Shown: positions 848 to 22,584 of the stretch, piece after piece | How positions within the stretch are numbered: position 1 is the stretch's first letter | How the letters are laid out: each line of letters starts with the position of its first letter | DNA from: a virus | Lineage: Duplodnaviria; Heunggongvirae; Uroviricota; Caudoviricetes | Length of the DNA: 22,584 nt | IMG/VR virus record: IMGVR_UViG_2740892449_000008 | Coordinates: 1-22,584 of that record | Direction: 5' to 3' (one strand) | Made by a program: the position numbers and the translations under genes | The notes under the pieces: model-generated | What the model saw: only the letters and a program-made list of their open reading frames with translations | Databases searched by the model: none | Told to the model about the DNA's origin: nothing

Positions 848-1431
848 TTAAATGAATGGCCGAGGCCGGGAAATAATCCCTCCGACAATAATGGCCTCCG
901 GGGTGTAGGGATAAACCGTCAGGGCGTCACCGTGATAGCATCCCGCACCGGCAAAAATGTTGCCGGTTGTACTTAAACTGATAGCCAGTCCCGTCAGATG
1001 GCGGCTTGCCGGTTTTGCATCAGCAACGAGGCGCTCCAGCTCCTGATACATTTCCTCGGTAATACCCTGCTCAAGCACGCCAACAACGATGCGGAACGTC
1101 CCCGGCTCCTCGTTGAGTTGCCACCACTCCCTCACCTCAATCAGATAGCCGAGCGGCTCCACCACACGCCGGATTGCGCCTATAGTGCCCTTATGGCAGT
1201 GAATGAAATACGCATCGCGGATAACAGCGCGTTTTGTCGCTTCCGGCCACTTATCATCCAGCGGTCAACCGAAAATGACCACGCCAGCCACGGCAGCAGA
1301 TTTGCCGGACAGGTATCCGGGTTCCACAGCTCACGAATACTGACCGGCGTTTTTTCAATTTCCGCACAGGCTTTTGCGGCGGCGACTTCAAGCGGTGATG
1401 AGCCAGTCGGCAGCAGTCGCGAATCACTCAT
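848..1431 (-). pseudogene. I: Baseplate protein I, interrupted by a -1 frameshift near 1257
   Basis: ORFs 1180..1431 (MSDSRLLPTGSSPLEVAAAK...SFSVDRW) and 848..1165 (VEPLGYLIEV...) are the two halves of a P2 gpI-like protein in different frames. Inserting one C into plus-strand 'atccag' (to 'atcccag') restores the recalled DRWDDKWPEATKRAVIRDAYFIHCHKGTIGAIRRVVEPLGY. Confidence 0.8.
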
Positions 1432-2332
1432 CCGAGCCTCCGGTCACGACGCTGTATTCGGTACAGAAAGACGCCTGCGTATTGTTGAGCACGATGTCGG
1501 CCAGCGGTGCAGCCAGTTCGACACGCTGCACGCCTTCCACATGCAAAGCGGCATAAATGGCAGACAGACGGATGTCGCGCCCAAGCCGGTGCTGTGCCGT
1601 GATGTACGCTTCCAGTTTTTTCACGGCAGCAGCGCGGATGGGTTCGCTTTCGGGACCTGGGTAAAGGTAAAGCGTGGCGTTTATCTGATATTCAACAATG
1701 GCGGCAGACTGCACGGTCACGCGGTCGGCCACCGGCCTGACGTCCTCGCCATTAAGGGCGTTACGCACCACGGCCAGCAGGTCTTCGGATGCGACGCCGT
1801 TATTTTCACGTGACAGCACGGAGATAGTGACGCAGGCCGGAGACGGACTGGTGACAGAGATATCCGCGACACGCCCGTCGGCACTGCGGCCATGATACTG
1901 ATAGGCACCCACCGACCCGGCGACGCTTAAACCTTCAAACGCCTGCTGAATACGCAGACGATAATCGGTGTCAGATTCCATCACTGCCGGTGTCGGCGGA
2001 ATGGTCGAATCATCTTCCGGGGTGATAATCAGGCGCGTGGTGTTGTAATTGGCACCAATCACATCAAGGTCATTACCGGCTGCACAGGCCAGCATCACCG
2101 CCCGTGCAGCCTCATTCACACGCTGACGCCAGATAAGCTCACGATAAGCATTTTCCTCCAGCAGTTTGACGAGAGGCTCAGATTCCAGCGTCAGGGTACG
2201 GGCGACCGCCTCCTGCTGGTCTTCCGGGTAAAGGGAAATCAGTGTCGCCTTGCGTTCGGCGAGAATGGTTTCAAAGTCCAGCTCCTCAACCACATCCGGT
2301 GCGGGTAGCTGGTTCAGGTCGATAATCGGCAT
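1424..2332 (-). CDS. J: Baseplate assembly protein J
   Basis: 302-aa intact ORF (MPIIDLNQLPAPDVVEELDFETILAERKA...) matching recalled P2 gpJ in length and sequence; 8-nt overlap with I. Confidence 0.9.
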   Translation of the reverse strand: MPIIDLNQLPAPDVVEELDFETILAERKATLISLYPEDQQEAVARTLTLESEPLVKLLEENAYRELIWRQRVNEAARAVMLACAAGNDLDVIGANYNTTRLIITPEDDSTIPPTPAVMESDTDYRLRIQQAFEGLSVAGSVGAYQYHGRSADGRVADISVTSPSPACVTISVLSRENNGVASEDLLAVVRNALNGEDVRPVADRVTVQSAAIVEYQINATLYLYPGPESEPIRAAAVKKLEAYITAQHRLGRDIRLSAIYAALHVEGVQRVELAAPLADIVLNNTQASFCTEYSVVTGGSDE

Positions 2333-2336
2333 GGTT

Positions 2337-2684
2337 TCAACTCACAGGGATGGTTAACGAAAGTGGCTGGCCGGTGTCGTTGTGCTGACCGGTTAATGTG
2401 ACCGTCATTCGCCCGTCAAAACTGCGCTCAGTGGTGACGGATGACAGGGTGACGCGGGGTTCCCATTTCAGCACCGCCATGTAACAGGCAACCTTAATCT
2501 GCAACTCAAGCGCCGGGGTCTGCGGCTGGTCAATCATTGACGCCAGCAACGAGCCGTAATCACGACGCATCACCCGTGAGCCGACCGGTGTGCGCAGGAT
2601 ATCGCCGATACTCTGGCTGATATGCTCAAGGTCAGTGACAGTCAGGCCATCACTGCGATTCATTCCAAGATAACGCGCTGTCAT
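2337..2684 (-). CDS. W: Baseplate wedge protein W (gp25/GPW family)
   Basis: 115-aa ORF (MTARYLGMNRSDGLTVTDLEHISQSIGDILRTPVGSRVMRRDYGS...) in the P2 gpW position between J and V. Confidence 0.9.
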   Translation of the reverse strand: MTARYLGMNRSDGLTVTDLEHISQSIGDILRTPVGSRVMRRDYGSLLASMIDQPQTPALELQIKVACYMAVLKWEPRVTLSSVTTERSFDGRMTVTLTGQHNDTGQPLSLTIPVS

Positions 2685-3316
2685 AGAGGACTCCCGGTTG
2701 TGCCGCCGCTGTCGCCGGGGTGTTTATGGGTATGCAGTACTTTACCGTTTGATGAGAGTTCACCGCCGGTGTGTTCAATGTTGCCGCGCATCGTCCCGCC
2801 CTTCTGCACTTCCAGCGTGCCGGTAATCAGCCTGTTGGTGCAGACCACCTCTGGTGTGTCCAGGGTGACGCGGGTTGATGCTTTCACCGTGACCACCGGC
2901 ACCGTGGCAGTAACAGAATCAGAAGCCGTCACGCTGGCCGTTTTAATTCCGCTTACCGTGAGTGCACTGGTTTCGGGTTCATACTCAATCACCGCCCCGT
3001 CAGGGAAACGGATATGCAGGGCATCCGCCGACGCAGACGGCGCGGGGTTATCACCGGAATAAATCCCCGGCAGAACGAACGCCGTGTCGAGTTCACCGCC
3101 CACGGCCAGAATCAGCACCTGTTCCCCCACGGAAGGTGCCCACCATGTGCGCGAACGTCCGGCACGATGGGTCAGCCACTGAAGCCAGTCGGTGCACATG
3201 CCGCCGGTCTGCACACGGCAGCGACTGGCGTTAAGGTCGGTTTCGACGATAATGCCGGGGCGTATCATGTTGCGCAGCGTGCGCGCGAGTTCCTGGATAT
3301 TTGCGAGTGTTTTCAT
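2681..3316 (-). CDS. V: Baseplate spike / tail assembly protein V
   Basis: Track ORF 2681..3352 begins at a TTG; the ATG at 3316 gives MKTLANIQELARTLRNMIRPGIIVETDLNASRCRVQTGG... which matches recalled P2 gpV. Overlaps W by 4 nt. Confidence 0.9.
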   Translation of the reverse strand: MKTLANIQELARTLRNMIRPGIIVETDLNASRCRVQTGGMCTDWLQWLTHRAGRSRTWWAPSVGEQVLILAVGGELDTAFVLPGIYSGDNPAPSASADALHIRFPDGAVIEYEPETSALTVSGIKTASVTASDSVTATVPVVTVKASTRVTLDTPEVVCTNRLITGTLEVQKGGTMRGNIEHTGGELSSNGKVLHTHKHPGDSGGTTGSPL

Positions 3317-3373
3317 AAGATCTAGCATGCTGCTGAGAACTGATGAGAACAATAAAAGAGTGTTTTTCTAAGG

Positions 3374-3406
3374 TTGACACAACACTCCATTTGAAGTGAA
3401 TATAAT
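3374..3406 (+). promoter_or_regulatory. Possible promoter hexamers upstream of the RelA/SpoT-like ORF (TTGACA 3374-3379, TATAAT 3401-3406)
   Basis: Both consensus hexamers are present in the AT-rich V/ORF intergenic region, but the spacer is 21 bp, which is non-canonical for sigma70. Confidence 0.25.
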
Positions 3407-3449
3407 GATTACTTAACTGGCAAAAAAACATCCTCACTAATTGGAGCCA

Positions 3450-4541
3450 ATGGATACACGCATGTCAGACATTCTAATTACTTATGATGAACGGAAAGAT
3501 AAATTTGAATCCTATGCCCTTACTCTTAAATCGTTATTAACCACGTTAATTCGCAATGAAAAAATTTCAATTCACTCACTAGAATCAAGAGTTAAAACAA
3601 AAAAAAGCCTTGAAGGCAAGATTAATAAAAAGGGAAAATACAAGTCTATAGATGATATTACTGATATCGTTGGTATCAGGATCATCACACATTATGCTGA
3701 TGATGTTGATAAGATAGCTGCTATAGTTGAAAAGGAGTTCACCATTGACCAAGAGAACTCTATTGATAAAAGAACCTCAATTGCGCCTGATAAATTTGGT
3801 TACTTATCACTTCATTATATAGTAACTTTAAGCTCAACCAGAACAAACTTAAAAGAATATGAAGTATATAAAAACATCAAAGCCGAATTACAAATACGAT
3901 CAATCCTTCAGCATGCCTGGGCGGAAATTGAACACGACATTGGTTATAAGTCGGCCACAGGACTGCCTAATGAAATAAGAAGATACTTTTCACGCTTAGC
4001 TGGTCTTTTAGAAATGGCCGATGATGAATTTATTAAAATCAGAAAAAAGATTTCTGAACGGCAGAAAGAGGTTGCAAAAGAACTAGAGCAAGGAACTAGT
4101 GATTCAGCTTTAGATATTTTCACTTTGGATGAATTCTTAAACACAAGTCGAATTATGAGTGAACTTTCAGAAGAGATAAAAGAAAAAACAGGAATCACAG
4201 TACATGGCCGATACAAGGATAAAGATTTGGGATACCTACTAAATAGTTTAAAGCTAGCCAACATAACTACAATAGAACAGCTCAATCAAAAACTCTCACA
4301 AATGAAAAAGCAGATCGTAGAGAGAATATTCTGCTTCGGAGAACTATTTATTGATTATTGCAGAGAAACCCCCATGCCAAAAGAAGTTCTTTTGAGTTAT
4401 TTATGTCAAATTATCGTTGCGTTTCAAAACTCACCTTCGTTAGAATCTGAATTTAATAACAAAGCAGGTTTAAATCTGAAAAACAGCGATATCTCCGATT
4501 TTTTCTCGAATATAAGAGAAAACATAAGCACACAACCTTAG
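3450..4541 (+). CDS. RelA/SpoT-homologue synthetase-fold nucleotidyltransferase with uncharacterised C-terminal domain; candidate fused toxSAS (CapRel-like) defence protein
   Basis: Intact ORF (track 3441..4541 from TTG; ATG at 3450 or 3462). Motifs seen: RVKTKKSLEGK, DDITDIVGIRII (D-x-x-G-x-R), AELQIRSILQHAWAEIEHD (E-x-Q-I-R...H-x-W-A-E-x-E-H), which together are the RelA_SpoT synthetase signature. No hydrolase domain and no adjacent small ORF. Strongly AT-rich, and opposite in orientation to the flanking tail genes. Confidence 0.75.
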   Translation: MDTRMSDILITYDERKDKFESYALTLKSLLTTLIRNEKISIHSLESRVKTKKSLEGKINKKGKYKSIDDITDIVGIRIITHYADDVDKIAAIVEKEFTIDQENSIDKRTSIAPDKFGYLSLHYIVTLSSTRTNLKEYEVYKNIKAELQIRSILQHAWAEIEHDIGYKSATGLPNEIRRYFSRLAGLLEMADDEFIKIRKKISERQKEVAKELEQGTSDSALDIFTLDEFLNTSRIMSELSEEIKEKTGITVHGRYKDKDLGYLLNSLKLANITTIEQLNQKLSQMKKQIVERIFCFGELFIDYCRETPMPKEVLLSYLCQIIVAFQNSPSLESEFNNKAGLNLKNSDISDFFSNIRENISTQP

Positions 4542-4570
4542 CTTTAGTTTTAAAGTATTCTAACAGAAGA

Positions 4571-4596
4571 CTGCTGCCGATAAGCACCGGCAGCAG
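4571..4596. terminator. Hairpin between the convergent RelA/SpoT-like ORF and gene S (possible bidirectional terminator)
   Basis: Perfect 9-bp inverted repeat ctgctgccg / cggcagcag with an 8-nt loop. The minus-strand side is followed by a moderately T-rich tract; the plus-strand side has no U-run. Confidence 0.35.
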
Positions 4597-4621
4597 CGAT
4601 GAGGTGTCGGGAATGGCACAA

Positions 4622-5074
4622 CTAACGATCGAGGTGAGTCAGGATAATCTCTTCAATCATCTGCACATCCTCACCGGTAAAGCCGAGCAGAGGACGCGCC
4701 GGATAATCAATTTTCTTACCGTCTTTCCGGTTTTCTTCCGACAGACCAAACTGATGCACACTGGCGATTTTCGGCGACTTCCCGCCGTAAAATTCCATTG
4801 ATGCCTGCTCCGGGCTGGCACGGATATGCAAAAAACGACTGGTGATAAGTTTCGCAAACATTTTTCGCTTAACGCGACCGGTCTTTTTTCTGGCGCTCTG
4901 CTGCTGGCGTGGTGCGTAGGGTGTGCCGTCCGGGGCTTTCTGTACCATCACCCGGCGCTGCTGACTCTGCCGCAGACGTTTCGCCAGTTCGGCACTCAGT
5001 CGCCGACGCCCTGACGGTGACAGCGATTCAATAAGTCCGGTCAGCCGGTCTTCAAAACGCTTAAACTCATTCAT
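4622..5074 (-). CDS. S: Tail completion protein S
   Basis: 150-aa ORF (MNEFKRFEDRLTGLIESLSPSGRRRLSAELAKRLRQSQQRR...) matching P2 gpS length and recalled sequence. Confidence 0.9.
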   Translation of the reverse strand: MNEFKRFEDRLTGLIESLSPSGRRRLSAELAKRLRQSQQRRVMVQKAPDGTPYAPRQQQSARKKTGRVKRKMFAKLITSRFLHIRASPEQASMEFYGGKSPKIASVHQFGLSEENRKDGKKIDYPARPLLGFTGEDVQMIEEIILTHLDR

Positions 5075-5534
5075 CCCACTTGCTCACCAGTTCGCCATTG
5101 ATATAAAGCTCCACCGGGCGGGTGACCGGCTCCGGCGGCGGAGGTTCCGGGATATTCTTCACATGCAGTGCGCCATCCACCTCACTGACCAGCGTGCGCT
5201 CGGTCAGCATCAGGCTGATGCTGATATCAAAGCTGCTGTCATTGTTGATGTCCGCATAAAACGTGAAGCCCTTTTTCTGGCCTTCGTCGGTGGTCATGAT
5301 GTCGGGCTGATTTTCCCGCAGCCACGCCAGCACCGGCACGATGAGCAGGTCAAAATCACCGGTAAAGTCGGTCACAATGACATTGAGCGTGTAACGCTTT
5401 TCAAATGACAGCGACGTCGCCAGTGTGGAGGCAATACTCCCGTTATCCACGAATATCCGCAGCATCTCGGGACTGGTTTTCAGCACCGTGACGGCATCAG
5501 TCAGCGCCCTGCGCAGGCTGTCGGGTTTGAGCAT
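5067..5534 (-). CDS. R: Tail completion protein R
   Basis: 155-aa ORF (MLKPDSLRRALTDAVTVLKTSPEMLRIFVDNGSIASTLATSL...) matching P2 gpR; 8-nt overlap with S. Confidence 0.9.
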   Translation of the reverse strand: MLKPDSLRRALTDAVTVLKTSPEMLRIFVDNGSIASTLATSLSFEKRYTLNVIVTDFTGDFDLLIVPVLAWLRENQPDIMTTDEGQKKGFTFYADINNDSSFDISISLMLTERTLVSEVDGALHVKNIPEPPPPEPVTRPVELYINGELVSKWDE

Positions 5535-5787
5535 CGTTTTCGTCCTGACAGTGTTTAATCATTTTTACCTGGCTGGCACAGCGTGCCAGCGCGTTCTCAA
5601 GCTGCCGGATATCGGCACTTAAATCGCCGTTCGTCTGCGGGTCACTGCCCGGCATCGGGCAAAGGCTCACTTTCGGGCAGGCGTTGGCGACAATCACTGG
5701 CGTCAGTGCAGGCCGGGCGCTGGTGCAACCGGCGCACAGCATCAGGCAGGTCAGCGCCGTACCAGCGGCGAAAATCTTCGTTTTCAT
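5497..5787 (-). CDS. lysC: LysC, Rz1-like outer-membrane lipoprotein spanin
   Basis: From the internal ATG: MKTKIFAAGTALTCLMLCAGC..., a signal peptide with a lipobox-like LCAGC and a proline-rich short protein (96 aa). It overlaps the lysB 3' end in another frame, as in P2. Confidence 0.65.
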   Translation of the reverse strand: MKTKIFAAGTALTCLMLCAGCTSARPALTPVIVANACPKVSLCPMPGSDPQTNGDLSADIRQLENALARCASQVKMIKHCQDENDAQTRQPAQGAD

Positions 5788-6067
5788 TAAGTAACCTCGT
5801 GATGGTTTTCTCGCGCTGTGCTTCACGCTTCGCGGCGTTCTCCAGTTCCTGACGCAGTGCTACCTGCGCCAGCTCGTTTTTGTCTGCCCTGGTGAGGGCA
5901 ACATGAAGCTGATTTTTCAGCATGGTGATGGTCGTCTGCTGCCCGCTGGCGACGTTGCTCGCCCTGTCCAGTGAGGTGCGCAGGCTGGCGTTTTCATGCT
6001 TCGTCAGAAACAGACCGGCCACCGCCAGTGATAACAACACAACCAGCACAATCATCAGCTTTGACAT
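5642..6067 (-). CDS. lysB: LysB, Rz-like inner-membrane spanin
   Basis: 141-aa ORF with an N-terminal transmembrane segment (MSKLMIVLVVLLSLAVAGLFL) followed by a charged, coiled-coil-like region; position after lysA. Confidence 0.8.
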   Translation of the reverse strand: MSKLMIVLVVLLSLAVAGLFLTKHENASLRTSLDRASNVASGQQTTITMLKNQLHVALTRADKNELAQVALRQELENAAKREAQREKTITRLLNENEDFRRWYGADLPDAVRRLHQRPACTDASDCRQRLPESEPLPDAGQ

Positions 6068-6480
6068 GGTTCCCGCCCCTCAAAACGCTGACGACAGGCC
6101 GTACGTATCAGCCGGAAGAACACCGACGCCACGAGGTAAATCAGCGCGGTAAAAATCCACCCGGCAGCGACCAGCGAGATAAACGTCGCCACCATCACCA
6201 CCAGAGCCGCCGCCCGTCTACGCCACGGCACCGGCTGCAAAAACAGCGCCGTGACAATCTTCACGGCCAGCGATTCCGGCGGCAGCTCCCGCCCGTAGCG
6301 TTCCAGCACATACTCCGTGGCATACACGCCGACACCACCGGCAACCACACAGATAACCGTCGCCAGAATCGCCCAGGTGGCGACAAAACTGACGGCCACG
6401 CTCTGCGGGTAAATCAGGGACAGTGCCAGCATCAGCGCCAGCGACACGTTCAGCATCAGTGAAAGGGATAATTTCTTCAT
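6055..6480 (-). CDS. lysA: LysA, membrane protein of the lysis cassette (lysis timing)
   Basis: 141-aa hydrophobic ORF with multiple predicted TM segments (MKKLSLSLMLNVSLALMLALSLIYPQ...), located between K and lysB. Confidence 0.8.
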   Translation of the reverse strand: MKKLSLSLMLNVSLALMLALSLIYPQSVAVSFVATWAILATVICVVAGGVGVYATEYVLERYGRELPPESLAVKIVTALFLQPVPWRRRAAALVVMVATFISLVAAGWIFTALIYLVASVFFRLIRTACRQRFEGREPCQS

Positions 6481-6494
6481 GGTGTTTACTCCGT

Positions 6495-6990
6495 TTAAGC
6501 CGGTACGCCGCCGGCGGTACGCCAGACGGTGACCAGTTTTTCCAGTGAATGCTCACGCTGACCGTAACCGGCACCCGGCAGGGACGCCAGATATTGCGAC
6601 AGCGTGAAATGGCGCGCTCAATGCGTCCCGCCGGATGTCATCCAGCGCACCGCGTTCGCGGATCAACTGAATGGCGAGTCTGTCCTGTGACAACGGACTG
6701 AAATCCGGCAGGGCAAGCTGTTTGCGGTAATGCGGCCAGAAAAGGTAAAGCTGCTGATAGCGACCGGAGGCCGTGGATTTTTCACCGCGACGGTTAAACA
6801 CCTTCGCCGGTCGGCCATGCGCGAACGGGTGGTCACTGTAGTCGGTGAAGATTTCCGGCTTCCCGTCCAGTCCGGTGACTATCACGTCATAGCCCCGGTT
6901 TTTCGTCAGCGGGTGATTCGCCGTCCCTTCGGACACGGCCAGCATGTCGAGAAAGGCAGCGATATTCTGATGCGTGTTAATTTCCGGCAT
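6495..6990 (-). pseudogene. K: Endolysin K (lysozyme), C-terminus disrupted by two -1 frameshifts (near 6633 and 6588)
   Basis: ORF 6553..6990 matches recalled P2 gpK through ...LIRERGALDDIR and then diverges. Inserting one G at each of two GG(G)CG sites (minus-strand sense) restores ...AGRIERAISRCRNIWASLPGAGYGQREHSLEKLVTVWRTAGGVPA and a stop at about 6495. Confidence 0.8.
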
Positions 6991-7271
6991 TACTGTTTCC
7001 CCCTGCCCTTAAAGCGGCGCTGAATGGCAATCTCAATCACCTGATAACCGGCGATACCCAGCATGGAGCCGATGCCGCACACCGCAGGCAGTGACAGGTC
7101 AGGAAACTGCACCAGAACAACACCGGCAACCATCGAGACAAAACCACCGAGCAACATGCGCCCGATAAACAGACGCGGGGTGATGGGTTCACCACCGGCA
7201 AGCACCTTGCCGACAACAATCAGCACCCCAATCATGAAAAGCGACAGGACGCTTTTTTCTTCTGCTGTCAT
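6990..7271 (-). CDS. Y: Holin Y
   Basis: 93-aa ORF with hydrophobic TM segments (MTAEEKSVLSLFMIGVLIVVGKVLAGG...) immediately upstream of K. Confidence 0.85.
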   Translation of the reverse strand: MTAEEKSVLSLFMIGVLIVVGKVLAGGEPITPRLFIGRMLLGGFVSMVAGVVLVQFPDLSLPAVCGIGSMLGIAGYQVIEIAIQRRFKGRGKQ

Positions 7272-7274
7272 GCG

Positions 7275-7478
7275 TTACTCCCACAGATTGACAGTTTCAG
7301 CCACGGGCGCGGTCTGAACGTCGGGCAGTTCGACGGCGGTGCCGTGCGGCAGCACCGCACCCAGTTCAGCCAGTCCCGGATTTGCGGCAAGCACGGCTTC
7401 AACCACGCCCTCAGTGCGCCCGTAATACCGGACACAAATGGCGTCGAGCGTGTCGCCCTGTAGCGCAAAGGTCTTCAT
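7275..7478 (-). CDS. X: Tail protein X
   Basis: Internal ATG gives the 67-aa MKTFALQGDTLDAICVRYYGRTEGVVEAVLAANPGLAELGAVLPHGTAVELPDVQTAPVAETVNLWE, matching recalled P2 gpX. Confidence 0.8.
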   Translation of the reverse strand: MKTFALQGDTLDAICVRYYGRTEGVVEAVLAANPGLAELGAVLPHGTAVELPDVQTAPVAETVNLWE

Positions 7479-7987
7479 CAGATTTGACTCACGATGCAGC
7501 GCGGCTTGTCCTGGATGCGCGCCACTGCCCAGCGCATATCCCGCCACAGTTCATCAATGGTGCTGTCAATGCTGTCAGCCTTCTTGTCGCCTTTCGCACT
7601 GGCATCCACGCCGCGATAACGCTCATAAAGCGACGCGGTCGCCATCGCACACACGGCGCGCTCGTAGTAGAAAACTTTGATGCTTTCACCGTCGATGTCG
7701 TCCGCCGGGACGTCCGCCAGACGCGTAAAACCGGCAGCAATTTTCTGTTCGCGGTACTCGTACAGCTCCGCATTCGTTTCAGCCATGCCTGACTTGATGG
7801 CCTCACGCAGACGGGCGGGGGCGACGGTCTGCTCAAGGCGCATACGTTCCCGGACGCGCTTCGGGTCGATATCGGGAAAAAAGAACGTGTTTTTAATCAC
7901 CGGCTCGTCGCCTGCCGGTTGCGGGATGACCACCGTACCCTCACCGGACACGGGAGCCTCCTTTCGCGGAATAATCAGCGTCATCAT
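7478..7987 (-). CDS. L: Head completion / capsid stabilising protein L
   Basis: From MMTLIIPRKEAPVSGEGTVVIPQPAGDEPVIKNTFFFPDIDPKRVRERMRLEQT...; 169 aa, matching recalled P2 gpL. Track ORF extends upstream from a non-ATG start. Confidence 0.85.
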   Translation of the reverse strand: MMTLIIPRKEAPVSGEGTVVIPQPAGDEPVIKNTFFFPDIDPKRVRERMRLEQTVAPARLREAIKSGMAETNAELYEYREQKIAAGFTRLADVPADDIDGESIKVFYYERAVCAMATASLYERYRGVDASAKGDKKADSIDSTIDELWRDMRWAVARIQDKPRCIVSQI

Positions 7988-8086
7988 GACTACCTCTGAA
8001 AAGTCGGGCGGTGGACGCCGGTGTAGTGTCAGGTGATTCACCCTCACTGACCGGCGTGCCGCCCTGGCGCGGGGCGCATTCGGTTG

Positions 8087-8829
8087 TTAACTGGCTTTCT
8101 TTTTCGGGCGTCCACGTTTTGCCGGTGTCACGCTCCGGGTCTTACGCGTGGCACGGGTGGCCGCTTTGGGTTGCGGCTCCGGCTTCGGTTTCAGCTCCCG
8201 CTCCAGTCGTTCAATCTCTTTTTTGACGCCTGCCTGACAGTCGAGCTGTGTCGCACGTTGCAGGTGAGCCAGCGCACCGGCGGCATCACCACCGTCACGC
8301 AGAAACAGACCGGTGATTTTGTGCAGCTTTGCGCGCACTTCATCAGGCATGTCAGCCGTGGCGGTCAGTTCGAGGGTCTCCGTCAGCAGGCGGGGATCCA
8401 CAGACTCACCGGCAGCGTGGGCGCGCATGGCCGCGAGCGCCACCTCCTCGGTGAACATGTACGGCGGGGTGCGGCGGTGTTTACCCGGCATGGTCAGACC
8501 GTACTTCAGGCATAACGGGCAATCTCCAGCGCACCGGCAATATCGCCGGTATCCAGACGCCACAGCATGACCGTCATCAGAATGTCATCCTGTGCACCTT
8601 TGCCCTGCTCCAGCACGCCGTTCACCCACGGCAACCAGAACGGCAGCAGTTCGCGTTTTTTCGCGGCCTTCAGCTCTTTTGAATAAATCGCTTTCAGTGT
8701 GCGCTGGTCTGCGGCGAGCTTAACCAGCATCTGCTCATAGACAGTTGCATGTCGCAGTGGGGCGGCTTCCCGCTGCGCGGTCATCGCTGCCGAGACCCGC
8801 ATCATGTGGCGCTGTGCGGGACTCGTCAT
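8087..8829 (-). pseudogene. M: Terminase small (endonuclease) subunit M, split by a -1 frameshift near 8508
   Basis: ORF 8506..8829 (MTSPAQRHMMRVSAAMTAQREAAPLRH...EIARYA*) and ORF 8087..8563 (...LKYGLTMPGKHRRTPPYMFTEEVALAAMRAHAAGESVD...) are adjacent halves of a P2 gpM-like protein. Inserting one G into plus-strand 'cttcaggcat' restores ARYALKYGLTMPGK. Confidence 0.85.
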
Positions 8830-8832
8830 CGG

Positions 8833-13823: not shown

Positions 13824-13965
13824 ACACCCCTTCATCACGCCCTCACACACTCACCACCGCACAAAACAGCCCGCAGACACACCAACGCCCCGGCGCACAA
13901 TCTAAACGCCATTACGACGTGCTGAGACGCTGAAAAAATAAAATCAGCACCACCGCCAGCGCGCA

Positions 13966-13984: not shown

Positions 13985-14101
13985 CGCCCGCTTAATGGGG
14001 CGGTTTTAATGCGGGTGCATAACCACTTCTTACCCACATCAATTCTGGTCAAGCCAAGCAGTACAGCTTATGATTTCAAGATGCAAACTCATGCAGCAAT
14101 G

Positions 14102-15231: not shown

Positions 15232-15314
15232 TTCTTTAGCACCAATTATTCGATTTTGGAATAAAACCAATGATAGGTAAGGATCGACACACAATCAATC
15301 ACCTTCTAAACCAC

Positions 15315-15584
15315 ATGGCAAAACGACAACCAACTATACATGATCATAGATACAGGTGCCTAGTCCAGCTTCTCACCAAACTACGCAAAGAAGCTTCTCT
15401 TTCGCAGTCAGAATTGGCCATTTTTCTAGGATTATCACAATCAGATATATCTAAAATCGAAAGCTTTGAAAGGCGATTAGATGCTTTAGAACTATTTGAA
15501 TTATTAGAGGTGGTTGCAAGCCGATTAGGTCTACCAATGGATATCTTACTAAAGGACACCTATGAAAGTATTAGTAAATCATGA
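15315..15584 (+). CDS. Small HTH (XRE-type) regulator, likely R-M controller (C) protein
   Basis: About 89 aa from the ATG at 15315 (alternative ATG at 15270). Helix-turn-helix signature SLSQSELAIFLGLSQSDISKIE. Divergent from the MTase, and its 3' end overlaps the start of the next ORF by 23 nt. Confidence 0.65.
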   Translation: MAKRQPTIHDHRYRCLVQLLTKLRKEASLSQSELAIFLGLSQSDISKIESFERRLDALELFELLEVVASRLGLPMDILLKDTYESISKS

Positions 15585-16615
15585 GCAAGCCTATAATGTA
15601 ATTATAAATGCAATCAACGATGCAAAAAAATTAACTGATTACAAAACAAATAATCAATGGGTCTCCATTCAAAATGTAATTTTAGGCACCCACCTTACAT
15701 ACAGATATATACTTATTACTGGTTTACTTGCAAAAGCAACAGACCCTAGAGTAAACCCTCTGGCTTTACAAGCTAATGCCCCCGTAGACGGAGCCTATGA
15801 TGCAAGAAGTTTATGTCATTCGGTAATAGTAGCAAAGTAGAAGGCCCATATTTAGAGGGTAAGTTAGGCGCATCAAATGAGCCATTTCTAAATAAACCTG
15901 CTCGTTACATGCTCCACTCCTCTGATAACCCTGTGCGCAGAGGAAATGATAAGGTTTTACAACAACTTTCAATTGATATATTACATGCAGCAACAACCCA
16001 AACCTTAGCTTATGAAATGCTTGTTATTGCATTATATTTTACCCTACAGCGAACCAATAGAGTTATAACGCCGAACTCAATTAATTTTGATTTCCATAAG
16101 ATTATTTATAATATTATATCTCATCCTTGTGATGGAGAAACATGCGCGATTGCTGCCGCAATTTCGTTACATTTATTAGGTGAACAAAGAGGATGGATAA
16201 TAAAAGCACATCCCGTCAATCAGCCGGTAGCTCCTCAAAAGAGATACTGGACATAGATGTATATCATGACGATATAGTTTTCCTTTCTATAGAAGTGAAA
16301 GACAAACCATTTAATTATCAAGATGTTAATCACGCCGTTTCAAAAGCATCTGCATCCGGGATTTCAAAAGTTATCTTCCTTAAAGGGCCAAGAGCAACAA
16401 ACTTAGATATTGATGAGTCTCTTGCGATTGAGAACGCTGCGACAAAAGGTGTTTCACTAAGCTTTAGTGACGTCATGACATTCACAACAACATGTTATGC
16501 GTTATCGCCACTATTAAGTAATGACAGAATAATAGATTTCATAAATAACACTTTAAAAGACATCAGAGCTAAAGATAGCACTATAGAATACATACAATCC
16601 ATATTTAAAAATTAA
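15562..16615 (+). pseudogene. Putative type II restriction endonuclease (PD-(D/E)xK), read through two -1 frameshifts
   Basis: Three consecutive ORFs (15562..15840, 15813..16256, 16193..16615) in frames 0, -1 and -2 form one ~351-aa gene if two bases are restored. AAGGA SD 6 nt before the ATG at 15562. Candidate catalytic motif D-x7-E-V-K in DIVFLSIEVKDK. Context: C gene upstream, C5-MTase divergent. Confidence 0.5.
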
Positions 16616-16622
16616 TACTCCC

Positions 16623-16657
16623 GGGACAATATAGTTCACAACTACGTTGTCCCTTTT
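16623..16657. terminator. Hairpin plus T/A run between the convergent endonuclease ORF and gene A
   Basis: gggacaa (16623-16629) pairs with ttgtccc (16647-16653), followed by ttttaaaa; lies between the two convergent stop codons. Confidence 0.4.
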
Positions 16658-16708
16658 AAAACAGTCAAGCAATTGCATTATATTAATTATTTACTTTTTA
16701 TCACAATC

Positions 16709-18978
16709 TCATAATTCATACGCTCTCCAATCACATATAACAGGATAACTGAAGCTTCTCCCGTCGTAATTTACACTTGCCCCACGCGCCAGCGCCTCAA
16801 GCTCCCATCGCTGCGGCCTGATACCGTTCTGAGCAAGGTCAACGCGGATACGGGTGATTTGCAATCGTTCAGACCTGGTCAGTCTGGCCGATGGTGCTAT
16901 TTCATGTGGTTTTAACGGGCTTCCGTTTCTTTGCTGACGACTTGGCGTTCTCCGACCGTGTTTTAATGCACCCCTGAGCGCCCTCACGACCTCCGGGTCA
17001 TTCCATTCGATAACACCGTCATCAACCAGATTAAGCACTGCTGCGGCATGCTCAGAAGGTGTGGGAGCCGGTAACGAAGCATCACCACCGGTGAGCTTTC
17101 CACAGTTATTGACAGGACTCCGAGGCGCGGCGATGCCGCTTTTTAAAGTCAAAGGCTCAACGACCGGAACTTTCGGCACAATGCGCCAGTCCGTCGTTCT
17201 GGTGATATGAATATGACGCGCGCCGAGATGCGGCGCGTAAATGCCGACCACTCTCTCGACTTCTTCCTCGTACTCGTTAACGTCATCCGACGGGCTACGG
17301 GCGACCCTGACAGTCTGACAATCGCGCGGGACATTTGCCCCGCCCTGCGCGCTGATATACAACGCAAAATCACCACTGTCTGCAGCGGCGCGTGCAGCCT
17401 CGACGCGCTCGTCAAACTCATCAGCAATGCTGACGCCGCGCGGCAATTTGCGTAGTTCACGGTAAGCCCCCATTGTCGGCAGGCCAACCGTTTTAAATTG
17501 CGGGATGCGCCACGTTGACGCCCATGCGGTAACAGCCGCTGCAGTGTCTTTCAGCGGCCTGCCGGTGTCGTTATCGAGCTGACCATCCAGTGCATAGCCG
17601 TCGATGTTTTTTGAAATGTATTTCGCGATATATCCCGCAGCACCGCCCCGGTTAAGGTGTTTTGCCTGAAAACGGTTTCGCGCAGCTCCTCTTTCGTCTC
17701 CATCCTCTTTGAGCGCGTAGCGACGCATGATTTCGATAATCTGGTTACGCTGGCGCGAATTACAAAAAAGCATTATATGCCAGTGCGGCGTTCCGTCGTG
17801 GTGTGGCTCGACGACACGCAAACCGTAGACCTGTAAATCATTATCCTTGAATGCCGTGCGCATCAGGCTCCAGATACGGCAGAGATAACGCTGCGCATCC
17901 TTTGGATTAAATGCCTCATCGTTCCAGCCGTGATTTAGCTGGACGGTTTTACTTTCGCCTTTTCCAACCTGACGTGTCGGGTGATACTTTGACGGCGCGG
18001 TCAGCGTGATAAACATCCCCACATCACCCTCTGCTGCGGCGTAACGCTCAATACCGGCAATGGTGTTCATCAGCTCCATCCGGCGAATTTCAGGATTAGA
18101 AATACTGCCCATCACCTTACTGATAAGGTCGATGCGCTCGCCGGTTTCCCTGTTTTCGAGATCACACGATTTAAGAAATTCCAGATTTGCCTGGCGGCGT
18201 GCACGCACATCACGAATGGCATGTTTACTGGCATAAGGAGAACGGTCTTTATTGACCTCCCCGACAGCAATCAGTAACGCCTCATGCCAGCGCATACGCT
18301 GGCCTTTAAGCTGATGAGTCCACCACTCATCGTTAAACAGACGGGCAATGGCAGAATATGCCTGCCTCGTGGTCATCTGTCCTTTACGGTATTTTTTCCA
18401 GTAGAGAGGGGAAATATTGAAAGCACGTGCAGCGCCAGCAACATGACCATACAGGTGAGCCTGCGCCTCATCCGTAAACAGCGATTCTTTTTCGCCATGC
18501 GCATCCACCCAGGCATCGCAGAGTTCCTCATACATCATGAAAAGCTGCGATGAGATACGGGCGGCAAACTTTTTCAGCTCCTTGTCATTCATTCCAGGCA
18601 GGCGCGCATAGTGGTCACGCTCTGCCAGAAACAGCAACGACGCGTCGGTGTTCATTTCATGGCGCTGATTCACACGCTCAATACGCGGCCATAAACGACG
18701 CTGAAAAGTGGATGTGAGGAAATAAAACCCGTGTACCGGACTTTTATTGCGCCGGATGTAGTCATAGCGTGAAGTAAACAGCGAGCGCAAAAAGTAAGGC
18801 AGGCGGTTAATCGTGGATAAAACACCTTGCACCTGACGCATCTCGTCACGTGTAAGAGGTCTTTCTCGCCCGACGGCCTCGCGTGGCGCGTTCCATGCAT
18901 AAGCACCGGTAAACGTCTCACCGGTGCCTGCGGCAAATGCTGACGGAGGGACAAAACGCCCGGAGCTTTAACGGCCAT
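16709..18978 (-). pseudogene. A: Replication initiation protein A (rolling-circle nickase), -1 frameshift about 20 nt after the start codon
   Basis: ORF 16709..18841 (MRQVQGVLSTINRLPYFLRSLFTSRYDYIRRNKSPVHGFYF...) matches recalled P2 gpA from residue ~47 onwards. The ATG at 18978 reads MAVKAPG and then the frame slips; inserting one base in 'gctccggg' restores MAVKASGRFVPPSAFAAGTGETFTGAYAWNAPREAVGRERPLTRDEMRQ. Confidence 0.85.
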
Positions 18979-19243
18979 ATGAGCCAAAAGCCTCTGAACA
19001 ACGCTTGCTGAGTTGCTCAACCTGCGCGTTTAAATCAGCAAAAGACTTTGCGCTTCCGGTCAGAATATCGTGATGCATCAGGCCGGAAACGAGCTGGCTT
19101 AATTTCGGGTAATAACCAACCACCGCCAGCCATTCCTGACCGGCGTTTTTACCGCTTTCCGCTCTCTTTTTCTCGTGGAGAATAAACTGAAAGCTGTCAC
19201 TGGTAACGACATAACGTTCGCCAATTTCAATACGAATACTCAT
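18968..19243 (-). CDS. Hypothetical early protein (P2 orf83 position)
   Basis: 91-aa ORF immediately upstream of A in the early operon; no motif recognised. Confidence 0.45.
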   Translation of the reverse strand: MSIRIEIGERYVVTSDSFQFILHEKKRAESGKNAGQEWLAVVGYYPKLSQLVSGLMHHDILTGSAKSFADLNAQVEQLSKRCSEAFGSYGR

Positions 19244-19464
19244 GCCGTTCTCCGGTAATGTTTGTTTTTTGCTTCAAAGACTGACTGACAGGAAACACAA
19301 CGCGTGGCTGACGGGTAAGCCGCACGACGGGCAGCAGGTATTGGCGCGTCACACTCTTCGCAAAGCAGCGCAGAAGCACCGCAATGTTTTACCCTTGCCG
19401 CGTTAATCTGGCGCTCCAGTAATTCAGCCTGTTGTTCCTGAATAAAATCTACGTTGTCCGGCAT
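19240..19464 (-). CDS. TraR/DksA-family C4 zinc-finger protein (P2 orf82 position)
   Basis: 74 aa with C-x2-C-x17-C-x2-C (CEEC...CVSC), typical of the DksA/TraR zinc-finger family encoded in P2-like early operons. Confidence 0.7.
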   Translation of the reverse strand: MPDNVDFIQEQQAELLERQINAARVKHCGASALLCEECDAPIPAARRAAYPSATRCVSCQSVFEAKNKHYRRTA

Positions 19465-19769
19465 TACCAGTTCCTTTTGTCGTTCAGTTTTTTAAATTCA
19501 TCAGCGCAATAGCTGGCGATTTCTGTCGTTAATTTCGTCAGTTCATCCACGGAGGAAATTTGCTTGTGAAATACAGCGCGTTTAACAAGTAAATTGACCA
19601 CATCAGACAGGAGGTTTAATTCATTCTGATAAATCGCGATAACAGATTCAGTGATGTCGCGTTTTTCTTTATCAAGACAAAGTTGAATAAGAGACAAATC
19701 GCCATTTTTCATAACGGCGATTTTTAAGGCGTTATTCAGTAATACAACTGAATGAGAACAGGACATCAA
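19464..19769 (-). CDS. Hypothetical early protein (P2 orf81 position)
   Basis: 101-aa ORF, start/stop coupled with neighbours (ATGA overlaps), relatively AT-rich; no motif recognised. Confidence 0.45.
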
Positions 19770-19990
19770 AGTACCTCCCCGCGAGACAATCCGATATTGT
19801 GAAATTTTTCCGACTCCTGACTGAGCAGCTCGACTATCTCCACGCGGGATAACTCCGCCTTTGTGATATGGCGAATCATGGCGTCAAGATGAGAAGAAAA
19901 GCGCGTCGCAGCGTCGGCCTGTGCTTCGGTTCTGGCCTGTTGCAGCAGTAATGCGTATTTACCGCACTGATTTTCAGAAACTGTATGCAT
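19766..19990 (-). CDS. Hypothetical early protein (P2 orf80 position)
   Basis: 74-aa ORF between B and the orf81-like gene, same strand and operon. Confidence 0.45.
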
Positions 19991-20053
19991 GACTTTCTCC
20001 AGGCAAAAAGAAGCCCCGCACGATTAAGTGCGTTAAAAACTCTGGTTAATTAC

Positions 20054-20554
20054 TTAATGCAGATATTGCTCTGGTTTTACCGACGTCAGAATTGTCGGTG
20101 CATACTCAAACAGACTGAATAATTCACGTAATGCACGGAATAAAGCATCACGCCAGTAACATGATTCCTCATTAATTCGCCAGTATGGCTGGTTAAATTC
20201 TTTTTCAGTCAATCCGGCATGCATAAATAAAGTGCGACGCTGACTGACTGTTAAAAAACTAATATATGCATACTCACTTGCGCCAACCTGACGGCGTTTT
20301 GAGAATGCCCCACGCAATTCATCAATTGCACAAACCAGCCGTTCACGTTCGACGTCGTTCATTTCTTCAAAACGCATCGTTGCGTGACGTTGTTTTAACT
20401 GCGCATGAAAGCAAACTGTTAGCCGTTCGCGCTCCATCATCTGATTATAATAATCACATGTATCCTGCCAGCGAGGGACGGCAAGATGCTTACCAATTAT
20501 CCGGCGCATAGCTGCTGGCTGTTTTTCGACGAGATTGAGCGTCATCGCTGTCAT
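20054..20554 (-). CDS. B: Replication protein B (helicase-loader-like)
   Basis: From the internal ATG: MTAMTLNLVEKQPAAMRRIIGKHLAVPRWQDTCDYYNQMMERERL..., 166 aa, matching recalled P2 gpB in length and position. Confidence 0.75.
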   Translation of the reverse strand: MTAMTLNLVEKQPAAMRRIIGKHLAVPRWQDTCDYYNQMMERERLTVCFHAQLKQRHATMRFEEMNDVERERLVCAIDELRGAFSKRRQVGASEYAYISFLTVSQRRTLFMHAGLTEKEFNQPYWRINEESCYWRDALFRALRELFSLFEYAPTILTSVKPEQYLH

Positions 20555-20787
20555 TTCCATACCCTCCGGCTTTTCAGAAAGGTCAGAGCCTTTTTTAACG
20601 GACTCTGTTTTTTGGTGCGGATAATGATTCCCTTGCGTCCCTTCCCGTGGGTGATGGTGAAGTCAATCGCCCTGGGGCTTTCGTTACGCAATAACTGAGC
20701 AATACAACGAGGCTCGTTCATCCTTTCCTCCTTAAGCCGCACGGCCATGTCTTGATTTGCTGTAACTAATGCGATTTTTCCAGTCAT
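20551..20787 (-). CDS. Hypothetical small protein (P2 orf78 position)
   Basis: 78 aa from the internal ATG (MTGKIALVTANQDMAVRLKEERMNEPRCIAQLL...); stop overlaps the B start. Its 5' end overlaps the 3' end of the Cox ORF by about 56 nt in another frame. Confidence 0.45.
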   Translation of the reverse strand: MTGKIALVTANQDMAVRLKEERMNEPRCIAQLLRNESPRAIDFTITHGKGRKGIIIRTKKQSPLKKALTFLKSRRVWK

Positions 20788-21103
20788 GCCATTCTGTCGG
20801 AGCTTCATCAACCAGTTGGGCTGCGTACTTGTCCCACTCACGGCGATTAATCCATAATTCAGCTTTCCCTCTTGGTTTTAATGGGTCTGTCATGTAGAAG
20901 GCTGGCAGCTTTCCTGCTTTAGCCATTTCAGCCACCGCGCGTGGTGTCTTACCGATGTAAAGAGCAAAACCTTCTTTCGACAGCAAATCAGATGGGCGCT
21001 CTGAAATCTGAATGCTTTTACGTTTGGCTTCATTTTCGAAACTTGCCTCATCGCTAGTTGGACAAGAAATTTCTACATTTGTCGTCACTTTGCTATCCTC
21101 CAT
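20732..21103 (-). CDS. cox: Cox-like excisionase / lysogenic-promoter repressor
   Basis: Contains GKLPAFYMTDPLKPRGKAELWINRREWDKYAAQL, resembling the recalled P2 Cox core (KGKLPVIYMTDP). Divergent from C. The ORF from ATG 21103 is 123 aa, longer than P2 Cox (91 aa). Confidence 0.7.
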   Translation of the reverse strand: MEDSKVTTNVEISCPTSDEASFENEAKRKSIQISERPSDLLSKEGFALYIGKTPRAVAEMAKAGKLPAFYMTDPLKPRGKAELWINRREWDKYAAQLVDEAPTEWHDWKNRISYSKSRHGRAA

Positions 21104-21196
21104 AAGATTTGCGATTCACCAACTGGAGCCATCTAGAGCCTTTTTGAGTGAATCACAAATTGCCAAGTAGCAATATAATTGGAGATTAGCAAAATT
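21104..21196. promoter_or_regulatory. Divergent cox/C switch region with imperfect inverted repeat and candidate -10 hexamer
   Basis: GATTCAC (21113-21119) and GTGAATC (21148-21154) form a 9/10 inverted repeat. TATAAT at 21174-21179 precedes C, but the nearest -35-like TTGCCA (21160-21165) is only 8 bp away, so promoter geometry is unresolved. Confidence 0.45.
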
Positions 21197-21496
21197 ATGT
21201 CAAGTGAACAAAGTGAGAAACTAAAGCTCATCCGTGAATCCGAACGCCTTAAAACTAAGGAACTTGCTGAATTAATTGGAATTAATTACTACACATATCA
21301 TGGATATGAATCAGGAAAATCAAAAATGCCTATGGAAGCAGGTATGAAGCTGTTTAAGCATCCACGCTTTCGCAAGTATCGTGACTGGTTCATGTTTGAT
21401 GAAACAGATCCAGCAGCTGGACAAATAGCCCCGGCTCTCGCACACATTGGGCAAGACTCAACAACCTTGCACCACTCAGACCAGAAGACTGGCTGA
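21197..21496 (+). CDS. C: Immunity repressor C
   Basis: 99 aa from the ATG at 21197 (MSSEQSEKLKLIRESERLKTKELAELIGINYYTYHGYESGKS...); C-terminus GQIAPALAHIGQDSTTLHHSDQKTG matches recalled P2 C. GGAG lies 12 nt upstream. Confidence 0.85.
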   Translation: MSSEQSEKLKLIRESERLKTKELAELIGINYYTYHGYESGKSKMPMEAGMKLFKHPRFRKYRDWFMFDETDPAAGQIAPALAHIGQDSTTLHHSDQKTG

Positions 21497-21589
21497 CGAT
21501 TTATTCAGCATATGTGTGTAGTAAATGTACGAAAGAAAATTGCATTAATTTTCAAGTAGTAGAAGTAAACAGCGTCATCGGAGGGCTTT

Positions 21590-22584
21590 ATGTCTATTAA
21601 AAAGCTCGATGATGGTCGTTATGAAGTGGACGTCAGACCGCAGGGTGCAGATGGAAAACGTATCAGGCGGAAATTTAAAACTAAAGGTGAAGCTCAGGCA
21701 TTCGAACGTCATGTACTGGTTAACTACCACAACAAAGAGTGGTTGGAGAAACCAGCCGACCGCCGAACTCTTACAGAGTTGTTAGGTAGATGGTGGATAT
21801 ATCACGGAAAATCACATGAGCGTGGAGATATTGAACGGGGCGTTTAACGACAATAATCGCCAAATTTGCAGAAATGGGAGTGTCCAGAGCTGACCAGCTA
21901 ACAAAGAAAACGATAACTGATTATCGCGTTGTAATGATGAACGATGGTCTAAAACCAGCCAGCGTAAATCGACATCTGGCAATAATGAGCGGGATGTTCA
22001 CCAAGTTAATTGACGCCGGTGAATACCACTCCCACAACCCGTTCCGTGAGATTAAACGGTTACGTGAAGCTGTTACGGAAATGGCTTTTTTGTCCAGTGA
22101 AGAGATTACGCGGCTGTTATCCATGCTTGATGGTGATGAGTTAAATGCAACTCTGGTCTGCCTTTCTACTGGTGGACGCTGGAGTGAAGTGTCTAATTTG
22201 AAAGCTGAACACATCATTAACCAGATGGTTACGTTTATGAAAACTAAAAACGGAAAGCGCAGGACAATTCCCGTTTCGCAGGACCTGATTAAACGGATCA
22301 AGACCAAAAATTCAGGCAGGCTTTTTAATGCCAGTTACTACAAAGTGCGCAACGCTCTCAGGGAAGTAAAACCCGATTTACCTGACGGACAGGCAGTGCA
22401 TGTTTTGAGGCATACATTTGCCACACATTTTATAATGAATGGAGGTAACATAATCACATTGCAGCGCATCCTGGGTCATTCTAACATTCAGCAAACTATG
22501 ACCTACGCACACTTTGCACCGGATTTCTTACAAGATGCTGTGACTCTTAACCCGGTGTCAGGAATGTCCATAATGCGTCCATAA
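21590..22584 (+). pseudogene. int: Tyrosine integrase, -1 frameshift in a G-run near 21835-21838; stop codon is the last 3 bases of the window
   Basis: N-terminal ORF MSIKKLDDGRYEVDVRPQGADGKRIRRKFKTKGEAQAFERHV... resembles recalled P2 Int. The C-terminal ORF has the tyrosine-recombinase catalytic motifs (...HVLRHTFATHFIMNGGNIITLQRILGHSNIQQTMTYAHF...). One extra G in 'acggggcg' joins them. GGAGGG SD before the ATG. Confidence 0.85.

Follow-up and report, generated by a model that had tools for sequence, protein, structure and literature searches.

The 13 frameshifts in the P2-like prophage sequence analysed here are very probably consensus errors of the Ion Torrent PGM and not mutations. The real DNA most likely encodes the ten affected phage and restriction-modification (R-M) genes intact. 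The analysed stretch of DNA, called the window, has 22,584 nt (1..22584, unstranded) and represents a P2-like (Peduovirus) prophage from H to int only.

Deletion sites and error spectrum

Deletion sites were placed by base-by-base alignment of the window to its closest relatives. Compared with the intact state, the window carries 13 single-base deletions and no insertions, corresponding to one deletion per 1.74 kb (13 per 22.6 kb). By our count ten genes are broken, with two sites each in I, K, Q and the restriction endonuclease gene (REase) and one each in M, O, the methyltransferase gene (MTase), A and int. The preliminary description of this DNA had reported about 11 deletions. All 11 of those sites are real; the second one in I (878) and the one in O (9982) had been missed. 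Position 878 lies outside the start coordinate given in that description.

On the minus strand, gene I (tail protein I, 822-1431) reads CCC at 878..880 and CC at 1258..1259, the true runs being CCCC and CCC. Gene K (lysozyme, 6495-6990) reads CC for a true CCC at both 6587..6588 and 6631..6632. Genes M (terminase endonuclease subunit, 8087-8829) and O (capsid scaffold, 9965-10818) each read GG for a true GGG, at 8509..8510 and 9982..9983, respectively. The site in O is located 17 nt from the stop codon, and a product of 279 aa is called in the source annotation versus 284 aa. Also on this strand, the gene for the C5 DNA cytosine methyltransferase (14102-15294) has C6 for C7 at 14477..14482, and gene A (replication endonuclease, 16709-18978) has G for GG at 18965..18965, 14 nt past the start codon. 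On the plus strand, gene Q (portal, 12764-13796) has C for CC at 12958..12958, where the RefSeq relative L001 has TC, and CCC for CCCC at 13493..13495. The gene for the SacI-family restriction endonuclease (15562-16615) has G for GG at both 15832..15832 and 16223..16223; these two shifts had earlier been bracketed correctly to 15800-15840 and 16184-16256. Finally, int (21590-22584) has G4 for G5 at 21837..21840.

Two further candidates were rejected. Comparison with L001 gave the impression of a lone T lost at 12958, but copies without any substitution relative to the window carry CC. An apparent insertion at 3599 is not a window error, as the window has the intact A8 of a cargo gene and L001 is frameshifted; A8 is present in this gene in 13 of 14 RefSeq complete genomes.

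In all 13 cases a run has lost one C or G. In site order, these runs have true lengths of 4, 3, 3, 3, 3, 3, 2, 4, 7, 2, 2, 2 and 5; as four of these lengths are 2, four sites are dinucleotides of which the window shows only one base. Runs of 2-3 account for nine of the 13 sites. The probability of 13 random positions all falling within G/C runs of at least 2 is 2e-9, and the 13:0 split between deletions and insertions has p = 2.4e-4. The fraction of G/C runs deleted climbs with length, from 0.2% (n = 2) through 1.6% (n = 3), 3.9% (n = 4) and 11% (n = 5) to 100% (n = 7), the C7 of the MTase gene being the sole G/C tract of that length in the window. All 100 A/T runs of at least 5 are untouched. 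Beyond the one-base losses, the window has no larger deletions and no nonsense codons, and inspection of the 13 contexts by eye showed no shared methylation or recognition motif. The deletion-only, homopolymer-restricted pattern recognized in the preliminary description holds for all sites, and the comparison with close homologues that it called for places every disruption in a homopolymer run.

Source of the window and sequencing platform

The window equals positions 2-22585 of GenBank JWJZ01000030.1, a contig of the E. coli RCE05 (ST394) assembly JWJZ00000000. It shows no substitutions and no indels against L021 (14,541 bases aligned). The gene order H-I-J-W-V ... S-R-lys-K-Y-X-L-M-N-O / P-Q ... 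A-B-cox / C-int is that of a P2-like prophage, Peduovirus records are 96.7-97.6% identical to the window, and the Pfam families of every gene agree with the RefSeq annotation of a colinear relative. The int stop codon forms the very end of the window, which includes no host DNA; 21874-22584 therefore belongs to int, whose out-of-frame remainder it represents, and not to pflA. Its cargo also includes an intact RelA_SpoT protein that is on record in the source annotation, and one phage protein of 56 aa is ubiquitous (50,180 blocks).

According to the paper describing RCE05, the strain was sequenced on an Ion Torrent PGM (318 chip, 200 bp kit) and assembled with MIRA 4.0, resulting in 191 contigs with an N50 of 118 kb at 19x coverage. 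A homopolymer corrector was used, but it cut artificial indels only ~2.5-fold and removed frameshifts in part. The source is therefore a short-read draft, and its contig starts within the repeated tail-fibre gene H. The identity of the contig, taken together with the methods of the paper, establishes the Ion Torrent origin of the data. Of the "long-read or flow-based" consensus error suggested earlier, the flow-based option proved correct because the paper gives the PGM, MIRA, partial correction and 19x coverage; the long-read option did not hold for this draft.

Restoration of the affected proteins

Restoring the 13 bases yields a sequence of 22,597 bp that differs from the intact relative L004 by five mismatches and no gaps (21,600 bp). 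Repair makes all ten proteins full length, nine of them identical to their L004 counterparts and A with a difference of 1 aa. The repaired product of gene I (203 aa) is also identical to that of L001. This supports, as far as sequence can tell, the earlier proposal that the genes may be intact despite their appearance.

The cargo includes a type II R-M system composed of a C5-MTase, an HTH controller and a SacI-family REase. As deposited, MTase and REase are split. After repair they are encoded side by side as proteins of 397 aa (PF00145) and 351 aa (PF09566), both identical to those of L004, and PADLOC assigns them to MTase_II (2e-79) and REase_II (8e-252, across 351/351 positions). As the breaks are very probably sequencing artefacts, both the phage and its defence cargo are almost certainly intact.

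Substitution-identical copies and natural relatives

Five copies (L018, L020, L022, L007 and L025) show no substitutions relative to the window over 7.4-21.6 kb. All five carry deletions of their own, 4-7 per copy, and there is one insertion in L025 as well. Together, the substitution-identical copies hold 27 distinct deletion sites and no substitutions in ~95 kb compared. Likewise, the window differs from the repaired consensus and its sister copies by 13 deletions and no substitutions.

The distribution of the window deletions among these copies is mosaic. At 878, the run is intact in L001, L018, L019, L020, L022 and L023, and the deletion is common to L025 only. The deletion at 6587 is also found in L020 and L025 but absent from L018, L022 and L007, that at 6631 is also found in L007 and L025 but absent from L020, and that at 8509 is private to the window. 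Further sharing occurs at 9982 (L018 and L020) and at 14477 (L018 and L007). In these copies without substitutions, the four-gamete test is violated between 6587 and 6631, and likewise for 9982 and 14477, so that the tree-like inheritance expected of natural pseudogenes is not observed. Eight deletion sites are common to two or three of the six assemblies, i.e. sites recur between independent runs, with the PGM documented for RCE05 only. A literature search found nothing relevant on the provenance or sequencing platform of the sister assemblies NTIJ, NTIO, NTIQ and NTIV, or on SRR1685365. The sister assemblies are not isolates of the RCE05 study, because all others there are separated from RCE05 by >76,000 SNPs each.

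L025 is an independent Logan assembly of SRR1685365, seemingly from the same reads as the window, and carries all four window deletions within its range. Since a separate assembly reproduces the deletions, the errors sit in most reads and were not made by the assembler. Such reproduction is expected of real mutations too, yet it is a defining property of the high-frequency indels of the PGM.

Seven clean relatives, pooled as a control, show 822 substitutions and two indel events (one intergenic, one in an A8 run). The window has 13 indels and five substitutions versus its nearest clean relative, a ratio unlike that of the natural relatives (Fisher p ~1e-23), and with one-base G/C deletions only it lacks the mixed lesion spectrum of natural decay.

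Homopolymer tracts in int and the methyltransferase gene

Source identity, error spectrum, protein restoration and the mosaic pattern were observed directly, platform and coverage were taken from the paper, and from these we infer that all 13 sites, taken one by one, are errors in RCE05 itself. There is a slim chance of a mixture, in which errors explain most sites while real slippage in RCE05 has shortened one or a few of the longest tracts (G5 to G4 in int, C7 to C6 in the MTase gene). The truncated 85-aa int product that results from G4 is on record in 17 other, unrelated public contigs, among them the otherwise clean-looking MEGAHIT contig L011, which has no further coding indel in 12.8 kb. 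For the MTase, C6 also occurs in the complete genome FORC_082 and is counted in three of five sister copies, L018 and L007 among them. Against real slippage, G5 is present in L007, and C7 in L020 and L022, all of them copies without substitutions relative to the window. All 394 RefSeq complete genomes have G5 in int and none has G4, and C7 is found in 19 of 20. Most remaining carriers of G4 have split host genes or additional G-run deletions. FORC_082 has lost a T from a T7 run in Q (T7 to T6) at the same site as L007, which suggests that the longest tracts suffer from platform error.

A related idea holds that int G5, MTase C7 and portal T7 are genuine on/off sites that slip recurrently in P2-like prophages, with a biological cause for the recurrence of the int product in 17 contigs. 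If so, frameshifts in int and the MTase gene would lock the prophage in place and turn off the R-M module, respectively. With near-fixed tract lengths in RefSeq complete genomes (G5, C7 and also A8, see above), a phase-variable switch is not apparent, and we consider this idea just as improbable. Database searches found no protein record for the 710-aa fragment of A or the 186-aa fragment of Q, probably because the source annotation gives pseudogenes no protein.

Other explanations for the frameshifts

Genuine pseudogenisation, i.e. a decaying prophage remnant with real slippage deletions in ten genes, is less probable still. Homopolymers are natural hot spots of slippage, defective P2-like prophages are frequent, Q of the closest RefSeq relative is interrupted by a real IS66 element, and the deletions recur in L025. 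However, five copies at zero substitutions lack most of the deletions and share the others in a way that does not fit a tree. The excess of indels (13 versus 0-5 substitutions) is the reverse of that in natural relatives, and insertions, larger deletions and nonsense codons, which decay would be expected to add, are missing from the window. Real slippage would prefer long runs, whereas here runs of 2-3 dominate and 100 long A/T runs are untouched. The PGM, moreover, is known for exactly such errors.

Two further explanations have a negligible probability. Unpolished long-read (ONT or PacBio) assemblies are also deletion-biased at homopolymers, FORC_082 being a possible example, but a long-read origin is already refuted by the published methods (PGM, 200-bp chemistry, MIRA), unless the GenBank record was later replaced, and is at odds with 191 contigs of N50 118 kb and a contig break inside a repeated tail-fibre gene. 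Within-host diversification of a mismatch-repair-deficient lineage with isolate-specific frameshifts would fit sister copies that differ by single-base run-length changes only, but it conflicts with zero substitutions against 27 distinct deletion sites in the ~95 kb compared, as mutators in E. coli mutation-accumulation studies yield several-fold more transitions than indels; mutator indels also include insertions and cluster in long A/T and G/C runs, neither of which is seen, and the four-gamete violations would demand repeated identical events.

Probable Ion Torrent consensus errors and their consequences

Consensus errors of the PGM thus remain the best explanation. The instrument registers identical bases in a row through a single pH signal, and some runs are systematically under-called. 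In addition, it makes reproducible high-frequency indel errors, in which mostly one C or G is lost from a run of two or three. A coverage of 19x can let such errors win the consensus at susceptible sites, and the reference-guided corrector used by the authors took out only part of them. As a result, ten phage and R-M genes appear as adjacent split ORFs in the deposited contig. The absence of deletions from long A/T runs would not be predicted by simple under-calling alone but would be by a C/G-biased error class.

The finding is of practical value and provides no new biology. With such an apparent pseudogene load, annotation and defence surveys would score the prophage, its R-M module and its integrase as defective, although the evidence points to an intact state. 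In first-generation Ion Torrent drafts in GenBank, false frameshifts occur about once every 2-4 kb. Many such errors are located in G/C runs of two or three bases, and filters for long homopolymers would miss them.

Comparison with known systems

Phasevarions, with their phase-variable MTase tracts, resemble the window in that a C7 tract lies within the C5-MTase ORF and varies in length among some assemblies. Unlike in phasevarions, C7 is nearly invariant among the RefSeq complete genomes, and variants occur only in assemblies with other signs of homopolymer error. Natural prophage decay by IS insertion, or in cryptic P2 remnants, produces a similar pseudogene-rich appearance, but the nearest relative owes its real decay to an IS66/ISCro1 insertion in Q, and natural relatives accumulate hundreds of substitutions with almost no indels, the opposite of the pattern in the window.

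Residual indels in 454, PacBio and ONT consensus sequences are found mainly in long tracts of any base. They are alike in causing frameshifts at mononucleotide tracts, and FORC_082 has its C7 to C6 and T7 to T6 losses at the same tracts, but the window has most of its sites in short G/C runs and spares the long A/T tracts. The closest match is the class of high-frequency indels and under-calls characterized for the PGM by Bragg et al. 2013 (PMC3623719). These high-frequency indels are mostly C/G deletions; of the strand-asymmetric ones, 82% are located in homopolymers of 2-3. They reappear at identical sites from one run to the next, and long homopolymers are under-called. The class is defined at the read level by strand asymmetry and flow position, and the window was compared with it at the consensus level. 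There, the window shows the same single C/G losses (13/13) mostly in runs of 2-3 (9/13), recurrent sites, under-calling that rises with run length, and no substitutions.

Prophage and source contig

The window covers the part of a P2-like (Peduovirus) E. coli prophage that extends from tail-fibre gene H to the integrase gene. Identity to P2-family phage records is 96.7-97.6%, and the window is 99.8% identical to the prophage adjoining pflA in L001 (RefSeq NZ_CP062865.1). The phage genes of L001 are all annotated as intact except for the portal gene Q, into which a 2.7-kb IS66-family element, ISCro1, is inserted (L001 14550-17241, equivalent to about window position 13535). The insertion is a genuine inactivation of this gene in L001 and is absent from the window. 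Within the terminase gene P (window 12275-12542), eight substitutions relative to L001 are clustered in 270 bp. All eight are synonymous, the P proteins of the window and L001 being identical, and the cluster looks like a small recombination patch.

The first 14,542 bases of JWJZ01000030.1 (L021) and window positions 1-14541 show zero differences, which identifies the window as positions 2-22585 of that contig (GCA_001630905.1). The contig starts within H (window position 1 is contig position 2). The rest of the prophage, comprising the gene for tail-fibre assembly and the other tail genes, is found on another contig, so that the window represents only a portion of it. The window closes exactly on the int stop codon and includes no host DNA. 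JWJZ00000000 was deposited by Rakitina et al. 2017 (PMC5517970) and represents E. coli RCE05, obtained as a single colony from a patient with Crohn's disease and sequenced on an Ion Torrent PGM (318 chip, 200-bp kit) and assembled with MIRA 4.0. The assembly comprises 191 contigs with an N50 of 118 kb at 19x coverage and belongs to ST394 (supplement, PMC5517970). Artificial CDS frameshifts were attributed to Ion Torrent homopolymer errors in the same study, and the "HomoHomo" corrector reduced them only about 2.5-fold (PMC5517970).

Cargo modules

A RelA_SpoT ORF of 359 aa (window 3462-4541, plus strand; domain PF04607) is located between the tail genes V and S. It is low in GC (about 34%) and matches the PADLOC candidate-defence model PDC-S33 (3e-16); from its sequence, it looks like a candidate toxSAS or CapRel-type defence gene. 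Its A8 tract and intact reading frame are shared by the window and 13 of 14 RefSeq genomes. The tract is one base shorter in L001 and in the relative L005, where the gene is annotated as an incomplete "GTP pyrophosphokinase".

The second module (window 14102-16615; GC about 38-42%) lies between the portal gene Q and the replication gene A and consists of a C5 DNA cytosine methyltransferase (minus strand), a small HTH controller (plus) and a SacI-family restriction endonuclease (plus). In other P2-like prophages of the same backbone, the Q-A slot is occupied by GmrSD + HEPN, SIR2 + DUF87, a retron RT, AAA_21 and others.

One-base deletions in G/C runs

A base-by-base comparison with L001 showed the window to lack single bases at 13 positions, to have an extra A within the A-run at 3599 and to differ by 21 substitutions. 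The extra A was rejected as an error of the window, the ORF being intact there and frameshifted in L001. Ten genes are struck by the 13 sites, including gene I (822-1431; sites 878 and 1258), K (6495-6990; 6587 and 6631), M (8087-8829; 8509), O (9965-10818; 9982), Q (12764-13796; 12958 and 13493), the C5-methyltransferase gene (14102-15294; 14477), the SacI-family endonuclease gene (15562-16615; 15832 and 16223), A (16709-18978; 18965) and int (21590-22584; 21837). At every site, a run is short of one G or C; the true run lengths, in order from 878 to 21837, are 4, 3, 3, 3, 3, 3, 2, 4, 7, 2, 2, 2 and 5. Relative to L001, site 12958 could be read as loss of a lone T, which was ruled out by the CC present in copies of the same sequence as the window.

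Lengthening all 13 runs by one base gave a repaired window of 22,597 bp, which aligns over 21,600 bp to the intact prophage L004 (GCA_012697525.1) with five mismatches and no gap. All ten repaired proteins are full length and free of internal stops; nine are identical to those of L004, and the A protein differs in one residue. The preliminary description had counted about 11 deletions. All 11 are real by base-by-base comparison with relatives, but the total was too low, sites 878 and 9982 having been missed. Both intervals to which it had assigned the endonuclease shifts contain the true positions, and the comparison with homologues that it had suggested places each disruption in a G/C run (13/13).

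G/C runs of two or more hold 21.5% of the bases, and the probability that 13 of 13 random deletions fall within them is 2e-9. The 13:0 ratio of deletions to insertions is likewise improbable (p = 2.4e-4). The hit rate per run climbs steadily with G/C run length, from 4/1840 for runs of two to 5/309, 2/52, 1/9 and 1/1 for runs of three, four, five and seven, respectively. The 100 A/T runs of five or more in the window are all unaffected.

Natural divergence of related prophages

Seven clean relatives (L004, L019, L023, L024, L005, L001 and L002) served as a control. Pooled against the repaired window, they show 822 substitutions and only two indel events, namely an intergenic T common to L019 and L023 and a change of the A8 tract common to L001 and L005. 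The difference from the 13 indels and 5 substitutions of the window is pronounced (Fisher p = 6e-23). The T indel shared by the diverged relatives L019 and L023 is located between lysA and K (window ~6485) and is the sole natural-looking indel of the backbone among about 800 substitutions.

Substitution-identical copies

Five other public copies carry zero substitutions relative to the repaired window over the 7.4-21.6 kb compared: L018 (NTIO), L020 (NTIV), L022 (NTIJ), L007 (NTIQ) and L025 (Logan assembly, SRR1685365). SRR1685365 is probably the read set of RCE05 itself. They contain 4, 4, 7, 5 and 5 one-base deletions, respectively, with one additional insertion in L025. Across the six assemblies, 27 distinct deletion sites are found, 24 of them in G/C. 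The sharing of deletions is mosaic: the window has the deletion at 6587 in common with L020 and L025, that at 6631 with L007 and L025, that at 9982 with L018 and L020, and that at 14477 with L018 and L007. For sites 6587 and 6631, all four combinations are present, and zero substitutions back any tree. Inheritance is unable to yield such a pattern, whereas recurrent site-specific error can do so. L025 reproduces all four window deletions within its range; the errors are therefore present in the majority of reads and do not stem from MIRA, which is the behaviour of high-frequency indels.

The longest tracts

The reduction of the int tract from G5 to G4 (window 21837-21840) produces an 85-aa truncated Int. 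The identical fragment is recorded for 17 further contigs, which come from unrelated ENA and Logan samples and have diverged prophage backbones. In five of the G4 contigs (L012 to L016), host genes are split as well or additional runs have deletions; in the MEGAHIT contig L011, no other coding indel was found. G4 recurs either because the tract is prone to error on several platforms or because a rare allele of this kind truly exists. The identical truncation in unrelated contigs, the otherwise clean L011 among them, would fit a real allele. Against its presence in RCE05, G5 is found in the same-sequence copy L007 and in the near-identical L004. Furthermore, the int segment occurs in 394 RefSeq complete genomes, none of which matches G4; their best matches span 85 record bases for an 84-base query and hence have G5.

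Of 20 complete genomes, 19 have C7 in the methyltransferase, which also speaks against a short allele. The exception is the complete RefSeq genome FORC_082 (L038, NZ_CP026641.1), where C7 is reduced to C6 at the site matching window 14477 and the gene is split into two CDS. In the same genome, the T7 tract of the portal gene Q is reduced to T6 (window 13556) and the gene is annotated as frameshifted. The window and FORC_082 share the shortened C7 tract; the T7 tract, intact in the window, is shortened in FORC_082 and L007. The pattern in FORC_082 resembles platform error affecting the longest tracts. It is highly improbable that RCE05 truly has the shorter run at one or two of the long-tract sites.

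Comparison with Ion Torrent PGM errors

The preliminary description had proposed long-read or flow-based consensus error. The former is refuted by the source, Ion Torrent PGM 200-bp data assembled with MIRA; the latter is supported by the platform used for RCE05 and by an error spectrum like that reported for it (PMC3623719). Judged from the sequence comparisons, the apparent pseudogenes of the window are almost certainly not a biological feature, and the underlying element is an unremarkable P2-like prophage that carries two cargo modules of defence type.

The PGM is known to under-call long homopolymers (Bragg et al. 2013, PMC3623719). A second error class, termed "high-frequency indels", comprises mostly A/T insertions or C/G deletions; 82% of its strand-asymmetric members fall in homopolymers two to three bases long, with C and G deletions dominating, and its sites recur between runs above chance (PMC3623719). 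Nine of the 13 window sites are G/C runs of two to three and the others are longer G/C tracts; the spectrum of the window matches the PGM spectrum of Bragg et al. 2013.
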